Of a stretch of 16,481 nucleotides of DNA, positions 1 to 8,558 are shown one piece after another; the first letter of the stretch is position 1, and each line of letters opens with the position of its first letter. The position numbers and the translations under genes were made by a program. Origin of the DNA: an uncultured archaeon (GTDB taxonomy: Archaea > Asgardarchaeota > Thorarchaeia > Thorarchaeales > Thorarchaeaceae); assembly GCA_964558645.1 (NCBI GenBank), contig CAZLEV010000009.1:91668-108148 (forward strand). Reading direction: 5' to 3'. The notes below the pieces were generated by a model. That model worked only from the letters and a program-made list of their open reading frames with translations. It did no database searches and was not told the DNA's origin.

Positions 1-1650
1 TTATGCTCCATGAAGTCCCTGGGTCTGAATGTGGCATCTGACTTCCTCCTCAATGTCAACCTCTCAGGGACAGGAGATGGAGGGATTGTCATAGTAGTAT
101 GTGATGACCCGAGGGGATACAGTTCGTCAAACGAACAAGACTCCCGATTCTACGCCAAGGCTGCGATGGTACCTCTTCTTGAACCCTCCACCCCGCAGGA
201 AGCAAAAGACGTGGTCAGGCACGCACTCACTCTATCGTCAGAGAAGCAAGTCCCGGTCATGGTTCGAAGCACTACGCGACTGAGCCACTCGCGAGGAGTG
301 GTTGTAACAGACAAACTGACAAAGAGAGATCGTACCCCGTCCGAAATGATACCTGATGGTCTTTACAATGTCCCCAATCCACATCTAAGACATCGGGACC
401 TGCTCGTCAAGATGGAAAAAATAGCAGAAGAGTTCGATCAGAGTCAGCTGAATATACTCAAGCTGCCGGACGAAGGGGAGATTACGGCCATCTCCTCAGG
501 AGTCAGCTTCATGTACACTCGTGAGGCCATAGAACGCCTGGGACTCACAAATCGCGTGGGCTCACTACATCTCACAACAACCTACCCCCTGCCTGCATCA
601 TTGATTCACAAAGTGTTCAAGCACTCTGACAGTATTATGTTTGTTGAAGAGGGGGATCCATTTGTAGAAGATTCCGTGAGAGTTCTGGGAACCGTCTTGG
701 ACTGTGAAAGAAAAAACATGTATGGGAAGAGAACTGGTCATATTCCACAATACGGAGAGATGACCCCTGACCTAGCAACAGCCGCATTGAAGGACATTCT
801 GGGGCTCGCCCATGAGGAAACAAGAAGACCGAGCAGAGAACTACTGTCGCGGATCGATGACCTAATTGTTCCTAGACCCCTCACATTTTGCGCGGGATGC
901 ACCCACAGAAATGCCTACTGGGCACTCACCAGACTAAGAAGGAGGCTGAAAGGGAAACTCATCGTCACGGGCGATATTGGATGCTACTCTCTCGGTGTGT
1001 TCTACCACAGCATCATGAACACAATGCAGGCGATGGGATCAGGAATTGGCACAGCAAATGGAATCGCCCAGTTGAAGCAGTTCGGACTGAAGACAAAGAC
1101 GATTGCGGTGGCCGGGGACTCGACCTTCTATCACGCGTGTCTACCCGGTTTGATAAATGCAAGACACAAGAACCTCGACCTGACATTCCTGATTCTGGAC
1201 AACGGCACAACCGCTATGACAGGATTTCAATCGCATCCGGGTTCAGATAGTCAGGTGTCGGGAGATAAGCTGGTAGAGATAGCTGATGTTGTTAGAGGCA
1301 TTGGACCGGATTATCTTCTCACGGGAGACGCTCGAGAAGTAAAGGAAACTATTGATCTGCTTTGGGATGCGGTCAATAGGCCCGGACTGAAAGTTGTCAT
1401 ATTAAGAGGGGTCTGTCGTCTAGAGAGCAGGAGAAAGCCGGAAGAGACTACCGAGAAACGAGTGAATGTTGATGCTGAACTGTGTAAGGGAACGGACTGC
1501 AGAGTCTGTGTGGGTGAGTTCGGATGCTTCGCTCTGATCTGGGACGGAGTAGAAGAGGTTGCGGTGGTTGATGAAGGTGCATGTGTGCGATGTGGCGCGT
1601 GTATTGAGATATGTCCTCATGGGGCCATCAAGTGGGAGGAATCCCAATGA
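1..1650 (+). CDS. iorA: Indolepyruvate:ferredoxin oxidoreductase alpha subunit (5'-truncated by the window edge)
   Basis: The frame is open from base 1. MKSLGLNVASD is an internal IorA motif, so the N-terminus lies upstream of the window. Other motifs: DDP-x4-SSNEQD, FCAGCTHR, GDIGCYSLG, TPP-binding GDSTFYH...ILDNGTTAMTGFQ, and a C-terminal ferredoxin domain (CVRCGACIEICP). Confidence 0.93.
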   Translation, partial: LCSMKSLGLNVASDFLLNVNLSGTGDGGIVIVVCDDPRGYSSSNEQDSRFYAKAAMVPLLEPSTPQEAKDVVRHALTLSSEKQVPVMVRSTTRLSHSRGVVVTDKLTKRDRTPSEMIPDGLYNVPNPHLRHRDLLVKMEKIAEEFDQSQLNILKLPDEGEITAISSGVSFMYTREAIERLGLTNRVGSLHLTTTYPLPASLIHKVFKHSDSIMFVEEGDPFVEDSVRVLGTVLDCERKNMYGKRTGHIPQYGEMTPDLATAALKDILGLAHEETRRPSRELLSRIDDLIVPRPLTFCAGCTHRNAYWALTRLRRRLKGKLIVTGDIGCYSLGVFYHSIMNTMQAMGSGIGTANGIAQLKQFGLKTKTIAVAGDSTFYHACLPGLINARHKNLDLTFLILDNGTTAMTGFQSHPGSDSQVSGDKLVEIADVVRGIGPDYLLTGDAREVKETIDLLWDAVNRPGLKVVILRGVCRLESRRKPEETTEKRVNVDAELCKGTDCRVCVGEFGCFALIWDGVEEVAVVDEGACVRCGACIEICPHGAIKWEESQ

Positions 1651-2258
1651 ACACCTACAACATAATGATTGCAGGAGTAGGGGGACAGGGCAATCTCCAG
1701 TGTGGAGCCGTGCTGGCTGATGCTGCGATGGAGGCAGAAATGAAACCAGTCATTGGAGAGACCTTCGGAGCATCAAGGCGCGGTGGAGGGGTCATCACTC
1801 ATCTAAGAATCTCGAAAGAGGACATGGGCCCACTGATACCTCAGAGGGAAGTGGATCTCATGTTGGGACTGGAGCCCTTAGAAACACTACGGGCAGCCCG
1901 AGATTTCGGCGGCAAAAGAACGTCCATCATCATGAGCAAGATGAGAATAGAAACTATGGAAACGCTCTCTGGAACTAGTCATTATCCACGCATCGATGAT
2001 ATCGCCAGTTGTTTGACAGCCCTATGCAGAGATCTGATTGTAATCTCTCCCACAAGCTCCTTGGAGGAACTAGGTACCTCGAGAGTACTGAATGCCTACA
2101 TGATTGGAGCGGCTTCGCACTTGGCAGAAATGCCGATATCACGCACTCATCTGGTAGTTGCTCTCAAGTATATGTCGGGTGATAGAGAACTCAATATGCG
2201 TGCCTTCGAAAAGGGGATTGTTGATGCGAAACGCTTAGAACCGACAACTGATGACTAA
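1647..2258 (+). CDS. iorB: Indolepyruvate:ferredoxin oxidoreductase beta subunit
   Basis: GVGGQG, GETFGASRRGGGVITHLRI and DLMLGLEPLETLR motifs. ATG 1647 overlaps the iorA stop (ATGA) and has GGAGG at 1635-1639, so 1647 is preferred over the ORF-track start at 1611. Confidence 0.9.
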   Translation: MNTYNIMIAGVGGQGNLQCGAVLADAAMEAEMKPVIGETFGASRRGGGVITHLRISKEDMGPLIPQREVDLMLGLEPLETLRAARDFGGKRTSIIMSKMRIETMETLSGTSHYPRIDDIASCLTALCRDLIVISPTSSLEELGTSRVLNAYMIGAASHLAEMPISRTHLVVALKYMSGDRELNMRAFEKGIVDAKRLEPTTDD

Positions 2259-4627
2259 GACTTGTCTTTCTTCTTCTCTGTTGCCGTCCTCGCCTCACGC
2301 CACATGACCTCAGATAGAACCGTGAACATGTCCGCAACTCCCTCCCCAGTCTTGGCGCTGCTCTCCATGTAAAGAAAGCCCTGGTCCTCGGCCCATTTCT
2401 TGGCCTCCTCGGAAGACACAGCTCTGTCTGGCAGGTCAACTTTGTTTCCGACAACAACAATGGGTACACGGGTACCTATGGACTCATCAGCCTCTTGAAC
2501 CCATTTCGGCAACTCAGTGAACGAACGTCTTCGGGTCACATCATAGACGAGAATCACACCGGCAGCACCACTGTAGTACATCTTTCGAACTGCAGCAAAT
2601 CGGGCCTGCCCCGCCACATCCCACGCTTGAACTTTTATGCCGACTGCGTATTCTGATTCGGGGGGAAAGATATGAGTGAGTTTGACAGCAAATTGACTCC
2701 CGATTGTTGTCTTGTAGTCACGCTCGAAGACACCGGTCACATATCGATTGACAAGGGTTGTCTTCCCCACAGCACCTTCTCCGGTGATCATCGTCTTAAA
2801 CAGATAGCTGTATGCATCGCTTTGAGTACCGGGTCTAGGCGGCTTAGGTTTCCGCATTCGAATCTCGGCAACTAATGTACTCTCATCAGGTGCTGGTTCG
2901 ATCTCAGTGACTTGGGTCTCTGCTACGGAGGGTTGTGATTCAGTTTCACCAGTAACAGCACTCTGAATCTCGTCAATCTCGGACATATCAGGTTGAGCCG
3001 GTGTTTCGCCAAAGAGCTTGTCCAGCAATTCCTCGGCCTCTCGGATTGAGGCATCCTTCTCGCCTCCTGAGACGGCAGCTGCCAGCTCTGCGTTCTCTTC
3101 CGCGGAAACCGAGCCAAAGCCAGTCCCCTTTACAGGAGCAAAGGGTGATGGCTCCTTGTAGACAGTTTCCTTCGCCGGACTTGTTTCTGCACGTTCTAAG
3201 GAAACGGATGGTTCCTCAGCTGCTGCTACTGCGGCAGAACCTTTCTCTACAACTATGACTGTTTCAGGCGTGGTGGCCTGCTTTATCTGATCTTCGCTAT
3301 CCTTCCACATAAGAACAATGGGACGTACAATGACACTGCCCTCAGCAATGGGTCTCAGCGTGATCTCCCTAGTGGCACTCTCGTTAGGGCCCAAGTCAAA
3401 CTGAATCTGTTGAGGCTCCACGGTCATAGAGTCTTTGGGGAAGTGATAGATCTTACCGGATATTCCCGAGATGGTCTTGTTAGTGACGTTGACAACAGTG
3501 AGTCTGCCTGTCAGCTCTGTGCCTGCCTCTGCCGTCTGCTGAACACTGAAAGACGGGATGATCTGATAGAGCCCCTCAATGACCTTCAGAGGGCGATCAG
3601 AAATGCCCACAAGAATCTCATTACGATCATCGCCTCCCGCGTCGCCTACGGCAAGAGAAAGTATCTTGTCATCGATGGAGACCTCAGCGAGTTTCTTGAG
3701 CTCGGCCATATAGAGATTGTAGAACAATACCCTGTGATCAGATGTGGCAATAACAATCTCATCCATATGGTCGGCGTTGAGTTCTTTGATTCTTATTGAG
3801 AGGGCATTGACGCCCTCCAGAGTGGAGAATAGGTCTAGTCGGCTCTCTTCATTTCGGTAGATTCTGATTGAGCCATCATGGGTAACTACTCCAAGCTCCA
3901 TCTTGCGATCTCCAAGAATGTCGCCAGCAGAGAGAGAGATAACCGGGCTCGGAAGGTTTAGAACTTCTATCTGTTCGATTTCATGGTCACGCACCTTGAA
4001 TATGCGCAGTGTCCTGTCACGATTCCCCGTGACAATCTCATCAATCTCATCGCCAATGACATCACAGGTTCCAATTGTGATGGGCATGTCATCGAGATCA
4101 TATCTAGCAAACTCTGTGAGAACGTCATTTGTGTCCATCTTCAAAACCCTGAGCGTGGAATCGCTTCCTCCAGCCAGAATCTCATTCTTGTTGTCCCCGG
4201 TAACATCTGTGACCACAACCGTGGTGACAAAGCGGTCAATGGAATGTTCAGCCAGTAACTCCAGAGAACCACTGGGGGCATAACGATAGACCTGCAGGGT
4301 TCCCGTCTGCCCGGGTATGTCTCCGGGCCCAATACTCCGACCGATCACGATCTCATTCTGGCCGTCATTGTTGGCGTCGGCTATTCGGATTGAGAGAACA
4401 CTTCCAAGGAGATCATGCTGGGCCAGAAGGCGAACTTCGCTCTCATTGGCGTCGTATAGCTTGATAACACCGTCACGCCCTCCGGTGCACAACTCAGGTT
4501 TCAGTGTGCCAGTGATATCTCCGACTGCAATGGCGCTAGTACTTCTATCATCCTCAATCTCAAACAGTATACGTGGTGCAGTCAAGTCTGTTACCATCCA
4601 ACCCAAGTGAAACGACGTTCCAGCCAA
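2255..4627 (-). CDS. Multidomain protein: 7-bladed FG-GAP/WD-like beta-propeller + Ig-like domain + acidic linker + C-terminal Rab-like small GTPase
   Basis: Seven D-x-x-G-D-x-x-x-E-type repeats (aa ~30-351), a beta-sandwich (aa ~357-461), a low-complexity linker (aa ~462-605), and GTPase boxes GEGAVGKT, YKTTIG, WDVAGQ, NKVD and SAK. The start is uncertain (TTG 4627, ATG 4597 or TTG 4585). Confidence 0.9.
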   Translation of the reverse strand: MAGTSFHLGWMVTDLTAPRILFEIEDDRSTSAIAVGDITGTLKPELCTGGRDGVIKLYDANESEVRLLAQHDLLGSVLSIRIADANNDGQNEIVIGRSIGPGDIPGQTGTLQVYRYAPSGSLELLAEHSIDRFVTTVVVTDVTGDNKNEILAGGSDSTLRVLKMDTNDVLTEFARYDLDDMPITIGTCDVIGDEIDEIVTGNRDRTLRIFKVRDHEIEQIEVLNLPSPVISLSAGDILGDRKMELGVVTHDGSIRIYRNEESRLDLFSTLEGVNALSIRIKELNADHMDEIVIATSDHRVLFYNLYMAELKKLAEVSIDDKILSLAVGDAGGDDRNEILVGISDRPLKVIEGLYQIIPSFSVQQTAEAGTELTGRLTVVNVTNKTISGISGKIYHFPKDSMTVEPQQIQFDLGPNESATREITLRPIAEGSVIVRPIVLMWKDSEDQIKQATTPETVIVVEKGSAAVAAAEEPSVSLERAETSPAKETVYKEPSPFAPVKGTGFGSVSAEENAELAAAVSGGEKDASIREAEELLDKLFGETPAQPDMSEIDEIQSAVTGETESQPSVAETQVTEIEPAPDESTLVAEIRMRKPKPPRPGTQSDAYSYLFKTMITGEGAVGKTTLVNRYVTGVFERDYKTTIGSQFAVKLTHIFPPESEYAVGIKVQAWDVAGQARFAAVRKMYYSGAAGVILVYDVTRRRSFTELPKWVQEADESIGTRVPIVVVGNKVDLPDRAVSSEEAKKWAEDQGFLYMESSAKTGEGVADMFTVLSEVMWREARTATEKKKDKS

Positions 4628-4781
4628 ATCATATATTCAGACGCTCAGACTGTAAACGCATCTAACATATCAATTCGGTGTATGAGCCCTTTTGTACTTT
4701 GTGCGGTTCTAGCTAGCAAGCTCTAGTTGAAAACACTTATGGACTCGATATATCGTTACATGTGCAGAAACTTGAAGGTGT

Positions 4782-5567
4782 ATGTGCTTGCCAAAACTTT
4801 CAGTTCGAAACCTGTACAAGAGTTATCCAAATGGAAATGGTGGAGTTACAAGGGTCCTGGAGGACATCTCATTTGATGTTCACGAGGGCGAGTTTCTAAG
4901 CATAGTCGGGCCATCTGGATGCGGCAAGACGACTCTCCTGAAGATTATCGCCGGACTCATGGAACCTGACAGTGGTGAAGTCTTCATCGACGGAAAGAAA
5001 GCCAAGATGGGTCACAGCAAGGTGGGCTACATCTTCCAGCAAGAGAGTCTGTTTCCTTGGCGAACTGTCAGACAGAATATCGAGTTTGGCTTGGAAATCA
5101 AGGGTCTTTCACGTGAGGAAAAACGAAGACTCTCAGACAAGATAATCACCCTGATCAGAATGAATGGTATGGAGGACAACCTGCCTCACGAGATATCAGG
5201 AGGGCAAGCTAGAAAGACGGAGATGGCAAGAAGTCTCATCACATCTCCCGACCTGCTGGTGTCTGATGAAGGACTCTCGAATCTAGATGCCCAGACACGT
5301 AACTATCTTCAAGAAGAATTCCTGAGAATTTGGGAAGAAACGGGATCGACCATTCTGTTTGTTTCACATAACGTTGATGAGGCGGTCTTTATGTCGGACC
5401 GGATACTCGTCATGAGTAACATACCCGCAGAATTCATCGGGGAGTTCCCTGTGGACCTGTCGAGACCACGAGAACGCGCCAGTACGGGATGCCTTGAATA
5501 CCGAGCAAAGATCCTTGAGCTGCTTCGTGTGGAGCAAGAGAAGGCATTGGCGAGGCAAGAAGGTTAG
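4782..5567 (+). CDS. NitT/TauT-family (SsuB/TauB/NrtD-like) ABC transporter ATP-binding protein
   Basis: Walker A GPSGCGKT, FQQESLFPWRTVRQN, signature ISGGQ, Walker B LLVSDE, H-loop FVSHNVDEAVFMSDRI. The true start may be TTG 4788, which is better spaced from the upstream AAGGTG. Confidence 0.92.
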   Translation: MCLPKLSVRNLYKSYPNGNGGVTRVLEDISFDVHEGEFLSIVGPSGCGKTTLLKIIAGLMEPDSGEVFIDGKKAKMGHSKVGYIFQQESLFPWRTVRQNIEFGLEIKGLSREEKRRLSDKIITLIRMNGMEDNLPHEISGGQARKTEMARSLITSPDLLVSDEGLSNLDAQTRNYLQEEFLRIWEETGSTILFVSHNVDEAVFMSDRILVMSNIPAEFIGEFPVDLSRPRERASTGCLEYRAKILELLRVEQEKALARQEG

Positions 5568-6409
5568 ATTGATACTTCGGCCCGCCATCTCAAGAGGTTC
5601 TTTTCAACATAGAGAAACGCATAGCTGATGAGAAAACCAAATAGGCCAATCATCAGCATTGCCGATATCGTCTGTCCAGTTCGCCCGAGCTGTTGAGATA
5701 TTATGACTAGGTATCCCAGCCCCAATCCACCGCCAATCATCTCTGCTGCAACTAGACACATCCAACCAATTCCGAAGCCAATCCTGAATCCAGCGAACAT
5801 TTCCGGAGCAGAGGATGGAAGGACAATCTTGCGAAGTATCTGCGGTTCATCGGCGCCGAAGCTTCGGGCAACGTCGATGTGGACCGGATTCGTTCTCTTT
5901 ACCCCTGTTGTCGTATTGAGGAGAATTGGGAAAAATGCACCAATCCAGATGATGAAGACTTGAGCGCCAAGTAAGTTCGTTCTGAACATGAGAATTGAGA
6001 GGGGGATCCAAGCAATCGGCGGGATAGGACGCAGAGCCTCGACCACAGGACTCAGTACATCATTGATAACGCGATATCTACCGATGGCTATTCCCAGTGG
6101 GGAGGCAGTCACCAGAGCCAGAAGGAAACCCAGCGAAACCCGATAGATACTCCTGCCGGCATGTTCTAGGAGTGTGACCCCATCTGTGTCCCCCTCAATC
6201 AGCAGCTCCAAGAAAGCCTGTCCAACATCAACGAGACTAAATCCACGTGCAACATATGCAACAAACTCCCAGATAGCAAGCAGGATAATGATTGGCAAAA
6301 TCAGTCTTAGAAGCACATTTCGGGAAGAAGCGAATACTCCCTGCTCTTCAGCAATACCATCGGCATAAGCCCCCGGAGATGTTGAAGTAGACTGGGTCAT
6401 TGCATGCAC
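5564..6409 (-). CDS. NitT/TauT-family ABC transporter permease (SsuC/TauC-like)
   Basis: Multiple TM helices, RPIPPIAWIPL, an EAA-like loop (DVARSFGA) and WMCLVAAEMIG. The start could be the second ATG, at 6400. Confidence 0.92.
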   Translation of the reverse strand: MHAMTQSTSTSPGAYADGIAEEQGVFASSRNVLLRLILPIIILLAIWEFVAYVARGFSLVDVGQAFLELLIEGDTDGVTLLEHAGRSIYRVSLGFLLALVTASPLGIAIGRYRVINDVLSPVVEALRPIPPIAWIPLSILMFRTNLLGAQVFIIWIGAFFPILLNTTTGVKRTNPVHIDVARSFGADEPQILRKIVLPSSAPEMFAGFRIGFGIGWMCLVAAEMIGGGLGLGYLVIISQQLGRTGQTISAMLMIGLFGFLISYAFLYVEKNLLRWRAEVSI

Positions 6410-6453
6410 GTAGTTCGAATGGCGGCTTTTGTGTCTGTCGTTCTTCTCCGCGG

Positions 6454-7434
6454 TCAGGCACTCTCAAGAAATGTGCCGTTGATGAAACCATCCAGAAACT
6501 CGGTCATATCCCCATAGTCCATCTCGACCAGTTCCTCATGAATAAGGAACTCTAAGTATCTCTCCAGTCCCGTCCGGTTGAGAGTGTAGTCGTATATTAT
6601 GCGGTTAAAGGCGGTTTCTACAGCCTCCTCTTCTGCACCAAGCCAATCAACAGCAATCGCCAAGGCATCAATGGGGTTCTGAACAATCCATTCTTCAGCT
6701 CGCTTGTGAACACTTATGACCTTCTGAACTCTGTCAGGATGTTCTTGGAGGAAACTATTGGAGGATGCTACTACACAACAGGGGTGACCAGGCCATATCT
6801 CTCCAGAGAGGAGCAGAGGAACGGCTAGGCCATCATACTCAGCAAGAGAGGGAAACGGTTCCCATGCTATGAATGCAGGCGATTCTGGTGATAGAGATAT
6901 ACCCATGTCTTGGGGCCTAGCAGTTTCAAGTGAAACATCATCAATACTCATACCGGATTGGTTGAGCGCAAGACGCAGGATGAAGTTCTGAACGGTAGAC
7001 GGACCCGGATGATAGATTCTCTTTCCCGCCAGATCTGAAAGATCTACAATCCTCCCGTCATCATATTCGCCTTTGTGAACCATGATGGCCGATCCCTCAA
7101 GATTCACGGCAGCCAAGATGGTAATCCCAATATCTTGGTTGATGCTCTTGGTCAAAGCAGGTGCTGCACCAAGATAGCCCATGTCAATCTGCCCGCCCAG
7201 GAAACCATCCATCTCATATGCACCGTTACCGAACTGCAACAACTGGACATTGAGACCCTCTTCTTCAAACCAGCCCTTCTTGAGCGCAACACGCACAGCA
7301 AGCTGATGCAAGTCTTGGTTGAGATATCCTATTCGAACATCGGGAACTGTTGTGGGATACCAGAGGGCAACAAGAGCCACAGACGATACGACGACAATGG
7401 CCAGCACAACGGCAGTCATCTTGTTCTTTTCCAA
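6454..7434 (-). CDS. NitT/TauT-family ABC transporter substrate-binding protein (SsuA/NrtA/NMT1-like), N-terminally anchored
   Basis: N-terminal hydrophobic anchor, VRIGYL, GWFEEEGLNV, WEPFPS and WPGHPCCVV. TTG start preceded by AGGTG. Upstream of and co-oriented with the permease. Confidence 0.9.
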   Translation of the reverse strand: MEKNKMTAVVLAIVVVSSVALVALWYPTTVPDVRIGYLNQDLHQLAVRVALKKGWFEEEGLNVQLLQFGNGAYEMDGFLGGQIDMGYLGAAPALTKSINQDIGITILAAVNLEGSAIMVHKGEYDDGRIVDLSDLAGKRIYHPGPSTVQNFILRLALNQSGMSIDDVSLETARPQDMGISLSPESPAFIAWEPFPSLAEYDGLAVPLLLSGEIWPGHPCCVVASSNSFLQEHPDRVQKVISVHKRAEEWIVQNPIDALAIAVDWLGAEEEAVETAFNRIIYDYTLNRTGLERYLEFLIHEELVEMDYGDMTEFLDGFINGTFLESA

Positions 7435-7542: not shown

Positions 7543-7920
7543 ATGTCGCTCCGGGAACGAATACCTGAACAGCTCAGACTCACTGACGACGCCTATGTTT
7601 CCATAACTCTGGACGAGGACATTGGTGTGTTTCCTACCAGCGAATATGTGCTGCTGGAGGTCTCACACAAGGCAGGGAGGATAGATTTCATGAGGGTCGC
7701 AGCCACGGTCCATGACCTTGTCAAAGATGACGGACGTATTGTAGCAATCAGGGGATTTGGATTCAAGGGCACAGGTCTCACCGTGAGAATTGCACATGAG
7801 ATCAAGAAGCGAGAGAAACGATTCATCTACCGTATGACATTTGACACCTTTGAAGCAACAGATGAAACGGGCAGACCTCAGACCAGCATTCAGATAGTCA
7901 TCATTCCTCCGGAGGGGTGA
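7543..7920 (+). CDS. Alba/SpoVS-fold putative nucleic-acid-binding protein with N-terminal extension
   Basis: The pattern LLEVSHK...VAATVHDLVKDDG...VAIRGFG...TVRIA...GRPQTSIQIVIIP follows the beta-alpha-beta-alpha-beta-beta layout and motifs of SpoVS and Alba. Confidence 0.62.
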   Translation: MSLRERIPEQLRLTDDAYVSITLDEDIGVFPTSEYVLLEVSHKAGRIDFMRVAATVHDLVKDDGRIVAIRGFGFKGTGLTVRIAHEIKKREKRFIYRMTFDTFEATDETGRPQTSIQIVIIPPEG

Positions 7921-7949: not shown

Positions 7950-8558
7950 ATGACAGAAGAAACTCCAGGGGAGAATGAACCCAGCTGGGTCAGGCATACT
8001 CTAAGATGCAGAATGTCAAAACTGGAGTTTCCTGAAGCGTGTCCGGTCTGTATGCGGGAGCCCGAGGATCTTGTCACTGTCACAGTTATAGAGAAATCGA
8101 GCTTCGACAAAGGATCCGACAATATCATCAGTGAGTATAGGGGGGTAAGAAGCGAAGTAGATACGGCACTGGCACAGGCAAGGGGTGCTACCACTTTCTG
8201 GGTTCCGACCTGCATGCAACATGGTACTGGCAGTCTCAGAACTGATAGGAGCAAACTTGTCGCCGTCTGTGGTTTCTTCGGCTTGTTCTACATTGTCCTG
8301 TACTACATCCTTGCAGTCATTAATGCCATCCAGTACTCACGACCGCTCTTCCTTCCAGCTGCGGGTCTGGCTATAAGCTCGGGAGTCATGCTGTTGTTGC
8401 TACTCTACGGAGCCATACCCAGATCTCTCGAACGGAACCTCAAGTTTATCGACATAGACAGGGGAAAGGATTTTGTCTACCTGCAGATACGCAATCCAGA
8501 TTATGCTGAGGCGTTCAGGCAGCAAAACCAAATGCACGCGGATGTAATACACCGATGA
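7950..8558 (+). CDS. Hypothetical 2-TM membrane protein with a putative split Zn site (CxxC...CxxH)
   Basis: FPEACPVC and VPTCMQH in the soluble N-terminal part, two hydrophobic helices, and a C-terminal NPDYAEAFRQQN helix. Confidence 0.75.
   Translation: MTEETPGENEPSWVRHTLRCRMSKLEFPEACPVCMREPEDLVTVTVIEKSSFDKGSDNIISEYRGVRSEVDTALAQARGATTFWVPTCMQHGTGSLRTDRSKLVAVCGFFGLFYIVLYYILAVINAIQYSRPLFLPAAGLAISSGVMLLLLLYGAIPRSLERNLKFIDIDRGKDFVYLQIRNPDYAEAFRQQNQMHADVIHR

Follow-up and report, generated by a model that had tools for sequence, protein, structure and literature searches.

We show that a 16,481-nucleotide stretch of contig CAZLEV010000009.1 (assembly GCA_964558645.1, positions 91,668 to 108,148), from an uncultured archaeon of the family Thorarchaeaceae and hereafter called the window, carries on its reverse strand an open reading frame (ORF) in which a beta-propeller, an immunoglobulin (Ig)-like beta-sandwich, an acidic linker and a Rab-like small GTPase follow one another in a single chain (Table 1). 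We refer to this gene as propeller-Rab and to its product as the Thor protein. An initial annotation had likened the propeller to eukaryotic BBS2 and ITFG2 and had read it as a symmetric, ancestral-looking member of a eukaryote-type class. By its profile matches and its loops, however, the propeller is a degenerate member of the FG-GAP_3 class (PF13517). We consider it likely that it forms the N-terminal part of a conserved, single-copy Thorarchaeales protein whose likeness to BBS and ITFG2 propellers is that of a shared class, and in which the propeller and the Ig-like domain would make up a platform under the control of the protein's own GTPase.

Table 1. Coordinates of the propeller-Rab gene and its parts, and of the other propeller genes compared with it. 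Positions without a locus prefix are those of the window; aa, amino acids; TM, transmembrane; MAG, metagenome-assembled genome.
Feature	Position	Strand	Residues	Description
Whole ORF	2255..4627	-	790 aa from TTG	Propeller, Ig-like domain, linker, Rab-like GTPase
Seven-bladed, four-stranded beta-propeller	3575..4576	-	aa 18-351	FG-GAP_3 class; AlphaFold2, Pfam, Foldseek, VIA-align
Blade 1 core	4451..4534	-	aa 32-59	Loop DITGTLKPE, hairpin GGRDGVIKL
Blade 2 core	4280..4393	-	aa 79-116	Loop D-A-N-N-D-G-Q-N-E, 9-residue insertion, hairpin GQTGTLQVYR
Blade 3 core	4139..4222	-	aa 136-163	Loop DVTGDNKNE, hairpin GGSDSTLRV
Blade 4 core	3995..4078	-	aa 184-211	Loop DVIGDEIDE, hairpin GNRDRTLRI
Blade 5 core	3854..3937	-	aa 231-258	Loop DILGDRKME, hairpin THDGSIRI
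Blade 6 core	3716..3799	-	aa 277-304	Degenerate loop ELNADHMDE, hairpin TSDHRVLF
Blade 7 core	3575..3658	-	aa 324-351	Loop DAGGDDRNE, hairpin ISDRPLKV
Ig-like beta-sandwich	3248..3565	-	aa 355-460	Generic MG / CARDB / TRAP-beta / ASH type
Acidic linker	2828..3247	-	aa 461-600	About 140 aa, poorly conserved
Conserved linker island	3008..3043	-	aa 529-540	REAEELLDKLFG
Rab-like small GTPase	2258..2827	-	aa 601-790	
L077 control	L077:2990-4951	+	653 aa	Pseudobacteroides sp. MAG; multi-TM domain of about 330 aa, then a C-terminal, very regular seven-bladed propeller
L076 control	L076:2745-5071		366 aa	Nitrososphaerota MAG; cytoplasmic propeller of eight blades (position includes the divergent neighbouring gene)
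Propeller ORF of the source genome	L079:1562-3103	-	513 aa	Genome G000, contig C2; zinc ribbon; BBS2_Mid 29.8 bits, collinear over model positions 2-107
Propeller ORF of the source genome	L001:781-1794	-	337 aa	Genome G000, contig C4; Beta-prop_BBS7 41.8 bits, Itfg2 26.6 bits (cut-off 27)

The seven blade peptides quoted in the initial annotation are all present in the translation of the ORF at the blade positions of Table 1 (for blade 2, aa 79-98), within window 3575-4534, with a blade spacing of 46-57 residues. Five of the seven blades follow the strict pattern D-x-x-G-D-x-x-x-E-[ILV], then G-x-x-D-x-x-[LI]-[RK]-[VIL]; blade 6 is degenerate, and blade 2 has its hairpin too, behind an insertion that the annotation had not listed. 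An AlphaFold2 model of aa 11-470, computed from a 71-sequence family alignment (mean pLDDT 91.3, pTM 0.86), contains 28 strands arranged between model residues 10 and 340 as seven four-stranded blades. In each blade of the model, the FG-GAP-like loop lies between the first two strands, and the G-x-x-D-x-x-L-R-V motif corresponds to a tight turn plus strand 3. As the initial annotation proposed, an FG-GAP-type loop and a WD40-like turn with its strand occur together in the blades. Judging from the strand order, the fourth strand of blade 7 is probably supplied by an N-terminal strand (aa 20-28), in a velcro closure. At the level of profiles, the Pfam model FG-GAP_3 matches in five stretches with 54.3 bits, above its cut-off of 26.9, and the classical FG-GAP model (PF01839) stays under its own (16.6 against 22.1). 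Mean pairwise identity between blades is 0.22, compared with 0.16 +/- 0.02 in shuffled sequences, none of 60 shuffles reaching the observed value. The calcium-type loop D-x-[DN]-x-D-G-x-x-[DE] is near-canonical in blade 2 only and degenerate in the other six. The blade type lies between classical FG-GAP/VCBS repeats and WD40 repeats.

The likeness of this propeller to those of eukaryotic BBS1, BBS2, BBS7, BBS9 and ITFG2 is real, and in this respect the earlier comparison with BBS2 and ITFG2 stands and extends to BBS7. Three Pfam models built on these proteins exceed a cut-off of 27 bits: Beta-prop_BBS7 (PF23743) with 54.6, BBS2_Mid (PF14783) with 49.5 and Itfg2 (PF15907) with 31.4, the last marginal and covering only positions 7-105 of a 330-position model. 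The Beta-prop_BBS7 match consists of five non-collinear fragments, the best of which aligns aa 124-254 with positions 160-294 of 299, and BBS2_N remains under its cut-off (16.2 against 26.3 bits). When the family profile is run against PDB sequences, ITFG2 comes first (7.1e-8), then BBS7 (9e-4), WD40 proteins (about 1e-3) and BBS2 (0.014), with bacterial FG-GAP structures behind them at 0.04-0.4 and integrins unlisted; the single Thor sequence reaches ITFG2 at 0.054 and BBS2 at 0.42. In a Foldseek search of the PDB, BBS2, BBS9, BBS7, ITFG2 and BBS1 occupy ranks 1-12 (4.5e-18 to 9.5e-13), integrin alpha chains score about 1e-12 and WD40 propellers about 2e-11, and the two-domain model aligns to BBS2 and ITFG2 with a TMq of 0.57-0.59. 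In VIA-align, ordinary WD40 propellers trail the BBS and ITFG2 chains by only 1-3 Z units. By protein-language-model features, the nearest cluster is an Asgard one, followed by the eukaryotic BBS2, BBS7 and ITFG2 clusters at 0.89-0.92.

What this likeness means becomes apparent from prokaryotic propellers of the same blade type. Beyond the orthologs, the best relatives of the Thor protein are prokaryotic FG-GAP_3 proteins, with 1136 matches among 1.8 billion representatives and E-values down to 1e-31. Of 43 sampled non-orthologous relatives, every one matches FG-GAP_3, 40 match BBS2_Mid, and 39 each match Beta-prop_BBS7 and Itfg2; 17 touch WD40. A score above the cut-off of BBS2_Mid or Beta-prop_BBS7 therefore fails to discriminate, since 39-40 of 43 unrelated FG-GAP_3 proteins give one likewise. 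In ten relatives with a single propeller, BBS2_Mid scores 34-77 bits, BBS7 35-72 and Itfg2 32.7-67.5 (about 33-68), and the Thor scores fall inside these ranges, except that its Itfg2 score lies just under the bottom of the range. The combined loop and hairpin pattern occurs at least three times in 48 of 144 relatives. Blades of this type are widespread among bacteria and archaea.

Two controls, found by scanning species-representative genomes, illustrate this point. The propeller of L077, from Pseudobacteroides, is built of blades with the same hybrid motif (type DVDNDGxNEVxAGSNDxTLRCFK) and matches BBS2_Mid best (97.7 bits), followed by Itfg2 (55.8), BBS7 (52.2) and BBS1 (36.3); as a single sequence run with phmmer against the PDB, it finds ITFG2 at 1.7e-11 and BBS2 at 2.5e-6. 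Its relatives P0140, P0145, P0146 and P0160 (620-660 aa) have the same N-terminal hydrophobic segment and blade motif. The archaeal L076 reaches 88.7 bits with BBS2_Mid and 50.7 with Itfg2, and its single sequence finds ITFG2 in the PDB at 7.5e-4. The Thor propeller is consequently no closer than other prokaryotic propellers either to BBS2 (49.5 bits and 0.42, against 97.7 bits and 2.5e-6 for L077) or to ITFG2 (31.4 bits, against 50.7-55.8 bits for the two controls and 1.7e-11 for L077). The initial annotation had reasoned that its comparison would fail if BBS2 and ITFG2 scored no better than generic bacterial proteins, and this is what is seen from both directions, the controls outscoring Thor on the eukaryote-built models and prokaryotic FG-GAP_3 proteins, with E-values down to 1e-31, far surpassing ITFG2 and BBS2 as matches to Thor. 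Structure predictions point the same way: in a shape search of the ESM Atlas, bacterial clusters combining FG-GAP with Ig-like domains (DUF11, ASH/DUF1573 or TIG sandwiches) align over both domains of the two-domain model at TM 0.67-0.72, a fit no worse than that of BBS2 or ITFG2.

As a side observation on the controls, the top PDB sequence matches of L077 and L076 (1e-21 to 1e-10) are two designed symmetric propellers, Cake and Scone, together with a natural protein, 3HXJ; none of these turns up for the Thor family, and the controls are therefore nearer to an idealised consensus of the blade class. Also, the L076 propeller divergently adjoins a gene whose N-terminus, which includes GIDLGTSS, has by eye the look of an actin- or ParM-fold ATPase.

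The controls share with Thor a blade design in which a D-x-D-x-D-G-x-x-E-[IV] loop is followed by G-x-x-D-x-x-L-R-V; they are 29% identical to it over nearly the whole propeller and match the same Pfam families. They differ from it in keeping six to eight canonical D-x-D-x-D-G loops, where Thor has one near-canonical loop, and in a higher internal symmetry. Blade-to-blade identity is 36% in L077 and 22% in Thor, and because of this lower identity, together with the degeneration of six of the seven calcium-type loops, the Thor propeller looks derived rather than ancestral. The view of it as a symmetric, ancestral-looking member of a eukaryote-type class is thus supported neither by its blades nor by its confinement to one Asgard order. 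Moreover, Thor differs from these prokaryotic propellers in being a soluble cytoplasmic protein with a Rab-like GTPase, Ras not being among the commonest families of the 43 scanned relatives.

Since propellers with the same blades from bacteria and from other archaea match the BBS and ITFG2 models as well as or better than Thor does, we infer that the likeness is a class property and not the mark of a sister or ancestor relation; the cytoplasmic BBS and ITFG2 propellers of eukaryotes would appear to be diverged members of the same class. Several observations weigh against this conclusion and would instead favor a specific kinship, in which the Thor propeller is a sister or ancestral relative of the intracellular BBS2, BBS7 and ITFG2 propellers and its fusion to a Rab reflects an ancient partnership of propeller and GTPase. 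Within the PDB, BBS and ITFG2 chains lead by three independent measures (profile, with ITFG2 on top; Foldseek, where they fill the first twelve ranks; and VIA-align), and the Foldseek ranking was obtained for the Thor model alone. The nearest named ESM clusters are the eukaryotic BBS2, BBS7 and ITFG2 clusters (0.89-0.91), which rank 3-9 for Thor and 14-20 for L077, behind many generic FG-GAP clusters, with all values near 0.9. This is the sole comparison in which Thor leans more towards eukaryotes than L077 does, and it suggests, as a lead rather than a proof, that Thor or Asgard cytoplasmic propellers may be somewhat closer to the eukaryotic ones. The Thor protein is also a cytoplasmic one with a physical link to a small GTPase, a coupling that can be likened to the functional coupling of the BBSome with ARL6 and of KICSTOR with Rag. 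Finally, a preprint of October 2026 mentions in passing a single structural cluster confined to Asgard archaea and eukaryotes, 'cilium-associated (BBS7/ITFG2)', which matches an existing catalogue of eukaryotic signature proteins (10.64898/2026.10.28.762692). On that account, BBS/ITFG2-like Asgard propellers have already been catalogued, though not analysed, possibly with the Thor family among them. Set against these points are the bacterial and Nitrososphaerota controls, which outmatch Thor on the eukaryote-built models and on the ITFG2 and BBS2 sequences, the fragmented and partial Pfam matches, the small Z difference from ordinary WD40 propellers, the missing coiled-coil, platform and helical domains of BBS proteins, the generic nature of the sandwich, and the restriction of orthologs to Thorarchaeales among the Asgard families searched. 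Nor is this order the Asgard group that is commonly put closest to eukaryotes. On balance, we regard a specific kinship as unlikely.

Could the resemblance have another origin? Cytoplasmic propellers that lost their calcium sites might have drifted independently, in Thorarchaeales and in eukaryotes, towards the same decayed loop beside a conserved hairpin. In agreement with such a convergence, the degeneration of the Thor loops resembles that seen in ITFG2 and BBS2, while L077 and L076 keep the canonical D-x-D-x-D-G, and language-model features draw Thor more than L077 towards the eukaryotic clusters. However, the controls with canonical loops already have the hairpin motif, so only the loop decay could be convergent, and on present data convergence is inseparable from shared class ancestry; as an explanation of the likeness, it seems quite unlikely to us. 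The propeller might alternatively be a divergent WD40-repeat propeller whose FG-GAP-like loops are incidental. The turn-strand motif S-x-D-x-T-L-R-V fits the WD40 consensus, the family profile matches CDC4, RACK1 and FAP52 at 1e-3 to 5e-3, and Pfam gives weak matches both to the WD40 repeat and to models of WD40-type propellers (THOC3, Prp19). Yet the WD40 model (PF00400) itself reaches only 21.1 bits against a cut-off of 27 and matches just the C-terminal half of the repeat, and the large WD40-propeller models score 24-26 bits against cut-offs of 305-320. FG-GAP_3, on the other hand, is above its cut-off in five stretches of the Thor protein and is found in all 43 relatives, as opposed to the 17 in which WD40 is touched, which makes a WD40 origin very unlikely. 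Membership of the FG-GAP_3 class thus remains the reading that we prefer.

The sandwich that follows the propeller provides no specific link to the BBSome. Folded alone, it is predicted with a pLDDT of 91.4, and its best Foldseek match is TRAP-beta (3.9e-6), followed by complement MG domains, CARDB, ASH/SPD-2 and MSP domains, with BBS9 at rank 50; on this model it is a generic Ig-like fold. The linker has column conservation of 0.33-0.6 with gaps, contains no Pfam domain above cut-off, and in its first residues (about aa 461-470, the last block of the two-domain model) falls to a pLDDT of 58; it is probably disordered. Within it, conservation rises to 0.90 for aa 531-540 in an island that is a candidate short helix (EELLDKLF) and that, by analogy with peptide motifs bound by other propellers, might dock either to the propeller itself or to a partner. 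A second conserved stretch, basic in character, lies just ahead of the G domain. The GTPase matches Pfam Ras at 1.6e-45 (aa 601-790) and has all its motifs intact (G1 GEGAVGKT, G2 T, G3 DVAGQ, G4 NKVD, G5 SAK), including the catalytic Gln, and mean column identity in the family is 86%. Its closest PDB match is a Thorarchaeota Rab (7EZB, 1.1e-44), ahead of Rab14, Rab30, Rab2A and Rab11A. These motifs and matches indicate a Rab-like, switch-competent enzyme, whose basic C-terminal tail ends in EKKKDKS and contains neither a Cys nor a prenylation motif.

In the arrangement that we propose, the propeller and the Ig-like sandwich would form a protein-binding platform, which a flexible, acidic linker some 140 aa long, with its one conserved short helix, may tie to the Rab-like G domain, a putative switch whose tail is basic and lacks a prenylation site. 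Through its nucleotide state, this in-built GTPase, along with the basic tail and perhaps the linker helix, could govern where the platform engages and with what, be it a membrane or a partner. Alternatively, it might govern the release of the platform from an intramolecular contact. A predicted complex of the propeller and Ig-like domains with the GTPase domain (with GTP and Mg) scored 0.00, which is evidence neither for nor against such a contact. It is tempting to go further and imagine that Asgard cytoplasmic FG-GAP_3 propellers, the Thor one included, were the stock from which eukaryotic BBS1, BBS2, BBS7, BBS9 and ITFG2 arose, with the Thor protein as a single-chain, GTPase-governed propeller scaffold whose own switch, acting possibly through the EELLDKLF helix, would control the contact of the propeller-Ig platform with membrane or cargo, a primitive coat- or adaptor-like device in an archaeon; we consider this extension speculative and improbable.

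In searches of Asgard genomes for orthologs (E <= 1e-40), 71 of the 76 genomes in the window's own family and the single genome of a sister family of the same order have the gene, as opposed to 0 of 224 genomes in 28 further Asgard families. It occurs in about 70 species representatives of Thorarchaeota, and database names agree with this distribution. The gene is thus restricted to one Asgard order, Thorarchaeales, across which the protein is single copy and under strong purifying selection. With regard to its start, the ORF opens with TTG and has its stop codon at window 2255-2257; its initial 10 residues are unconserved (85% gaps in orthologs), and an identical database protein of 780 aa is on record (P0002); hence translation most likely begins at M11, an ATG at 4595-4597, to give a 780-aa protein. 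Given that the translated protein has no N-terminal hydrophobic segment and is fused to a GTPase, it is predicted to be cytoplasmic and soluble.

The gene is flanked by convergent iorA/iorB genes and a divergent ABC transporter. About 58-68 of 74 Thorarchaeota loci (window 1-7434 and loci L002-L075) share the order iorA-iorB, propeller-Rab, then ABC ATPase, permease and NMT1-type binding protein, even at only 65-70% identity between the orthologous proteins. No operon partner was found, and within the conserved synteny (about 60 of 74 loci) there is no gene for a GTPase-activating protein, a guanine nucleotide exchange factor, a longin or a roadblock protein. Beside the ABC transporter lie two forward-strand ORFs with no Pfam match (window 7543-7920 and 7950-8558; 125 and 202 aa); of the 74 orthologous loci, 55 have the first and 37 the second in this place.

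In a search of the window's whole genome by a looser method, Itfg2 missed the gene and BBS2_Mid barely detected it. The same genome encodes at least two more FG-GAP_3/BBS-like propeller ORFs (Table 1). Among 14 well-known control genomes, Itfg2 matched none and BBS2_Mid matched one, that of Thermotoga maritima, under cut-off. As a further observation on FG-GAP_3 proteins, P0135, P0137, P0155, P0157, P0164, P0177, P0181, P0201 and P0237 are mostly about 1600 aa long without an N-terminal hydrophobic segment, and a common N-terminal motif, W...DWVT, precedes their FG-GAP_3 propellers.

The protein can be compared with several characterized systems. ITFG2, the propeller subunit of KICSTOR (PDB 9O5A chain G, 9V6E chain B), is 14% identical to the Thor propeller and has neither the Ig-like domain nor the GTPase. 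The BBSome subunits BBS2, BBS7, BBS9 and BBS1 (PDB 6VBU, 6VOA, 6XT9, 4V0N) have a downstream set of coiled-coil, GAE sandwich, platform and helical domains that Thor lacks; their sandwiches are no closer to that of Thor than MG, CARDB or TRAP-beta domains are, and the Pfam matches to these subunits are fragmentary and non-specific. Furthermore, the GTPase of the BBSome is a separate, Arf-like protein, whereas the one in Thor is Rab-like and part of the same chain. Among solved structures, Thor-Rab (PDB 7EZB/7EZD/7EZE) is nearest to the C-terminal domain, and it likewise lacks a prenylation Cys. Thor-Rab was described as a standalone protein of about 180 aa with no mention of a propeller (Tran et al. 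2024, PMC10933270); the G domain studied here, by contrast, is preceded by a propeller, an Ig-like domain and 140 aa of linker. The whole protein can be seen as a variant of the multidomain small GTPases. In the literature on Asgard archaea in connection with the BBSome, Bardet-Biedl, FG-GAP, ITFG2, propeller-GTPase or small GTPase-WD40 fusions, we found no paper describing a propeller-Ig-linker-Rab fusion, and none of these subjects is mentioned in the main text of a 2026 Nature Microbiology paper on eukaryotic signature proteins.

How the GTPase-controlled scaffolds of eukaryotes, such as the BBSome, KICSTOR and coats, arose has yet to be settled, and a true forerunner in Asgard archaea would be of value. 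Pfam matches to BBS2_Mid, Beta-prop_BBS7 and Itfg2, and even BBSome chains at the top of a Foldseek ranking, are nevertheless insufficient to claim one, because bacterial propellers of the same class give equal or stronger signals. Regardless of its distant relationships, the interest of the Thor protein lies in what it joins in one chain: a near-universal protein of Thorarchaeales, conserved at 65-70% identity, in which a Rab-like switch is covalently tied to what we predict to be a cytoplasmic propeller-Ig platform, an arrangement that can be tested at the bench.

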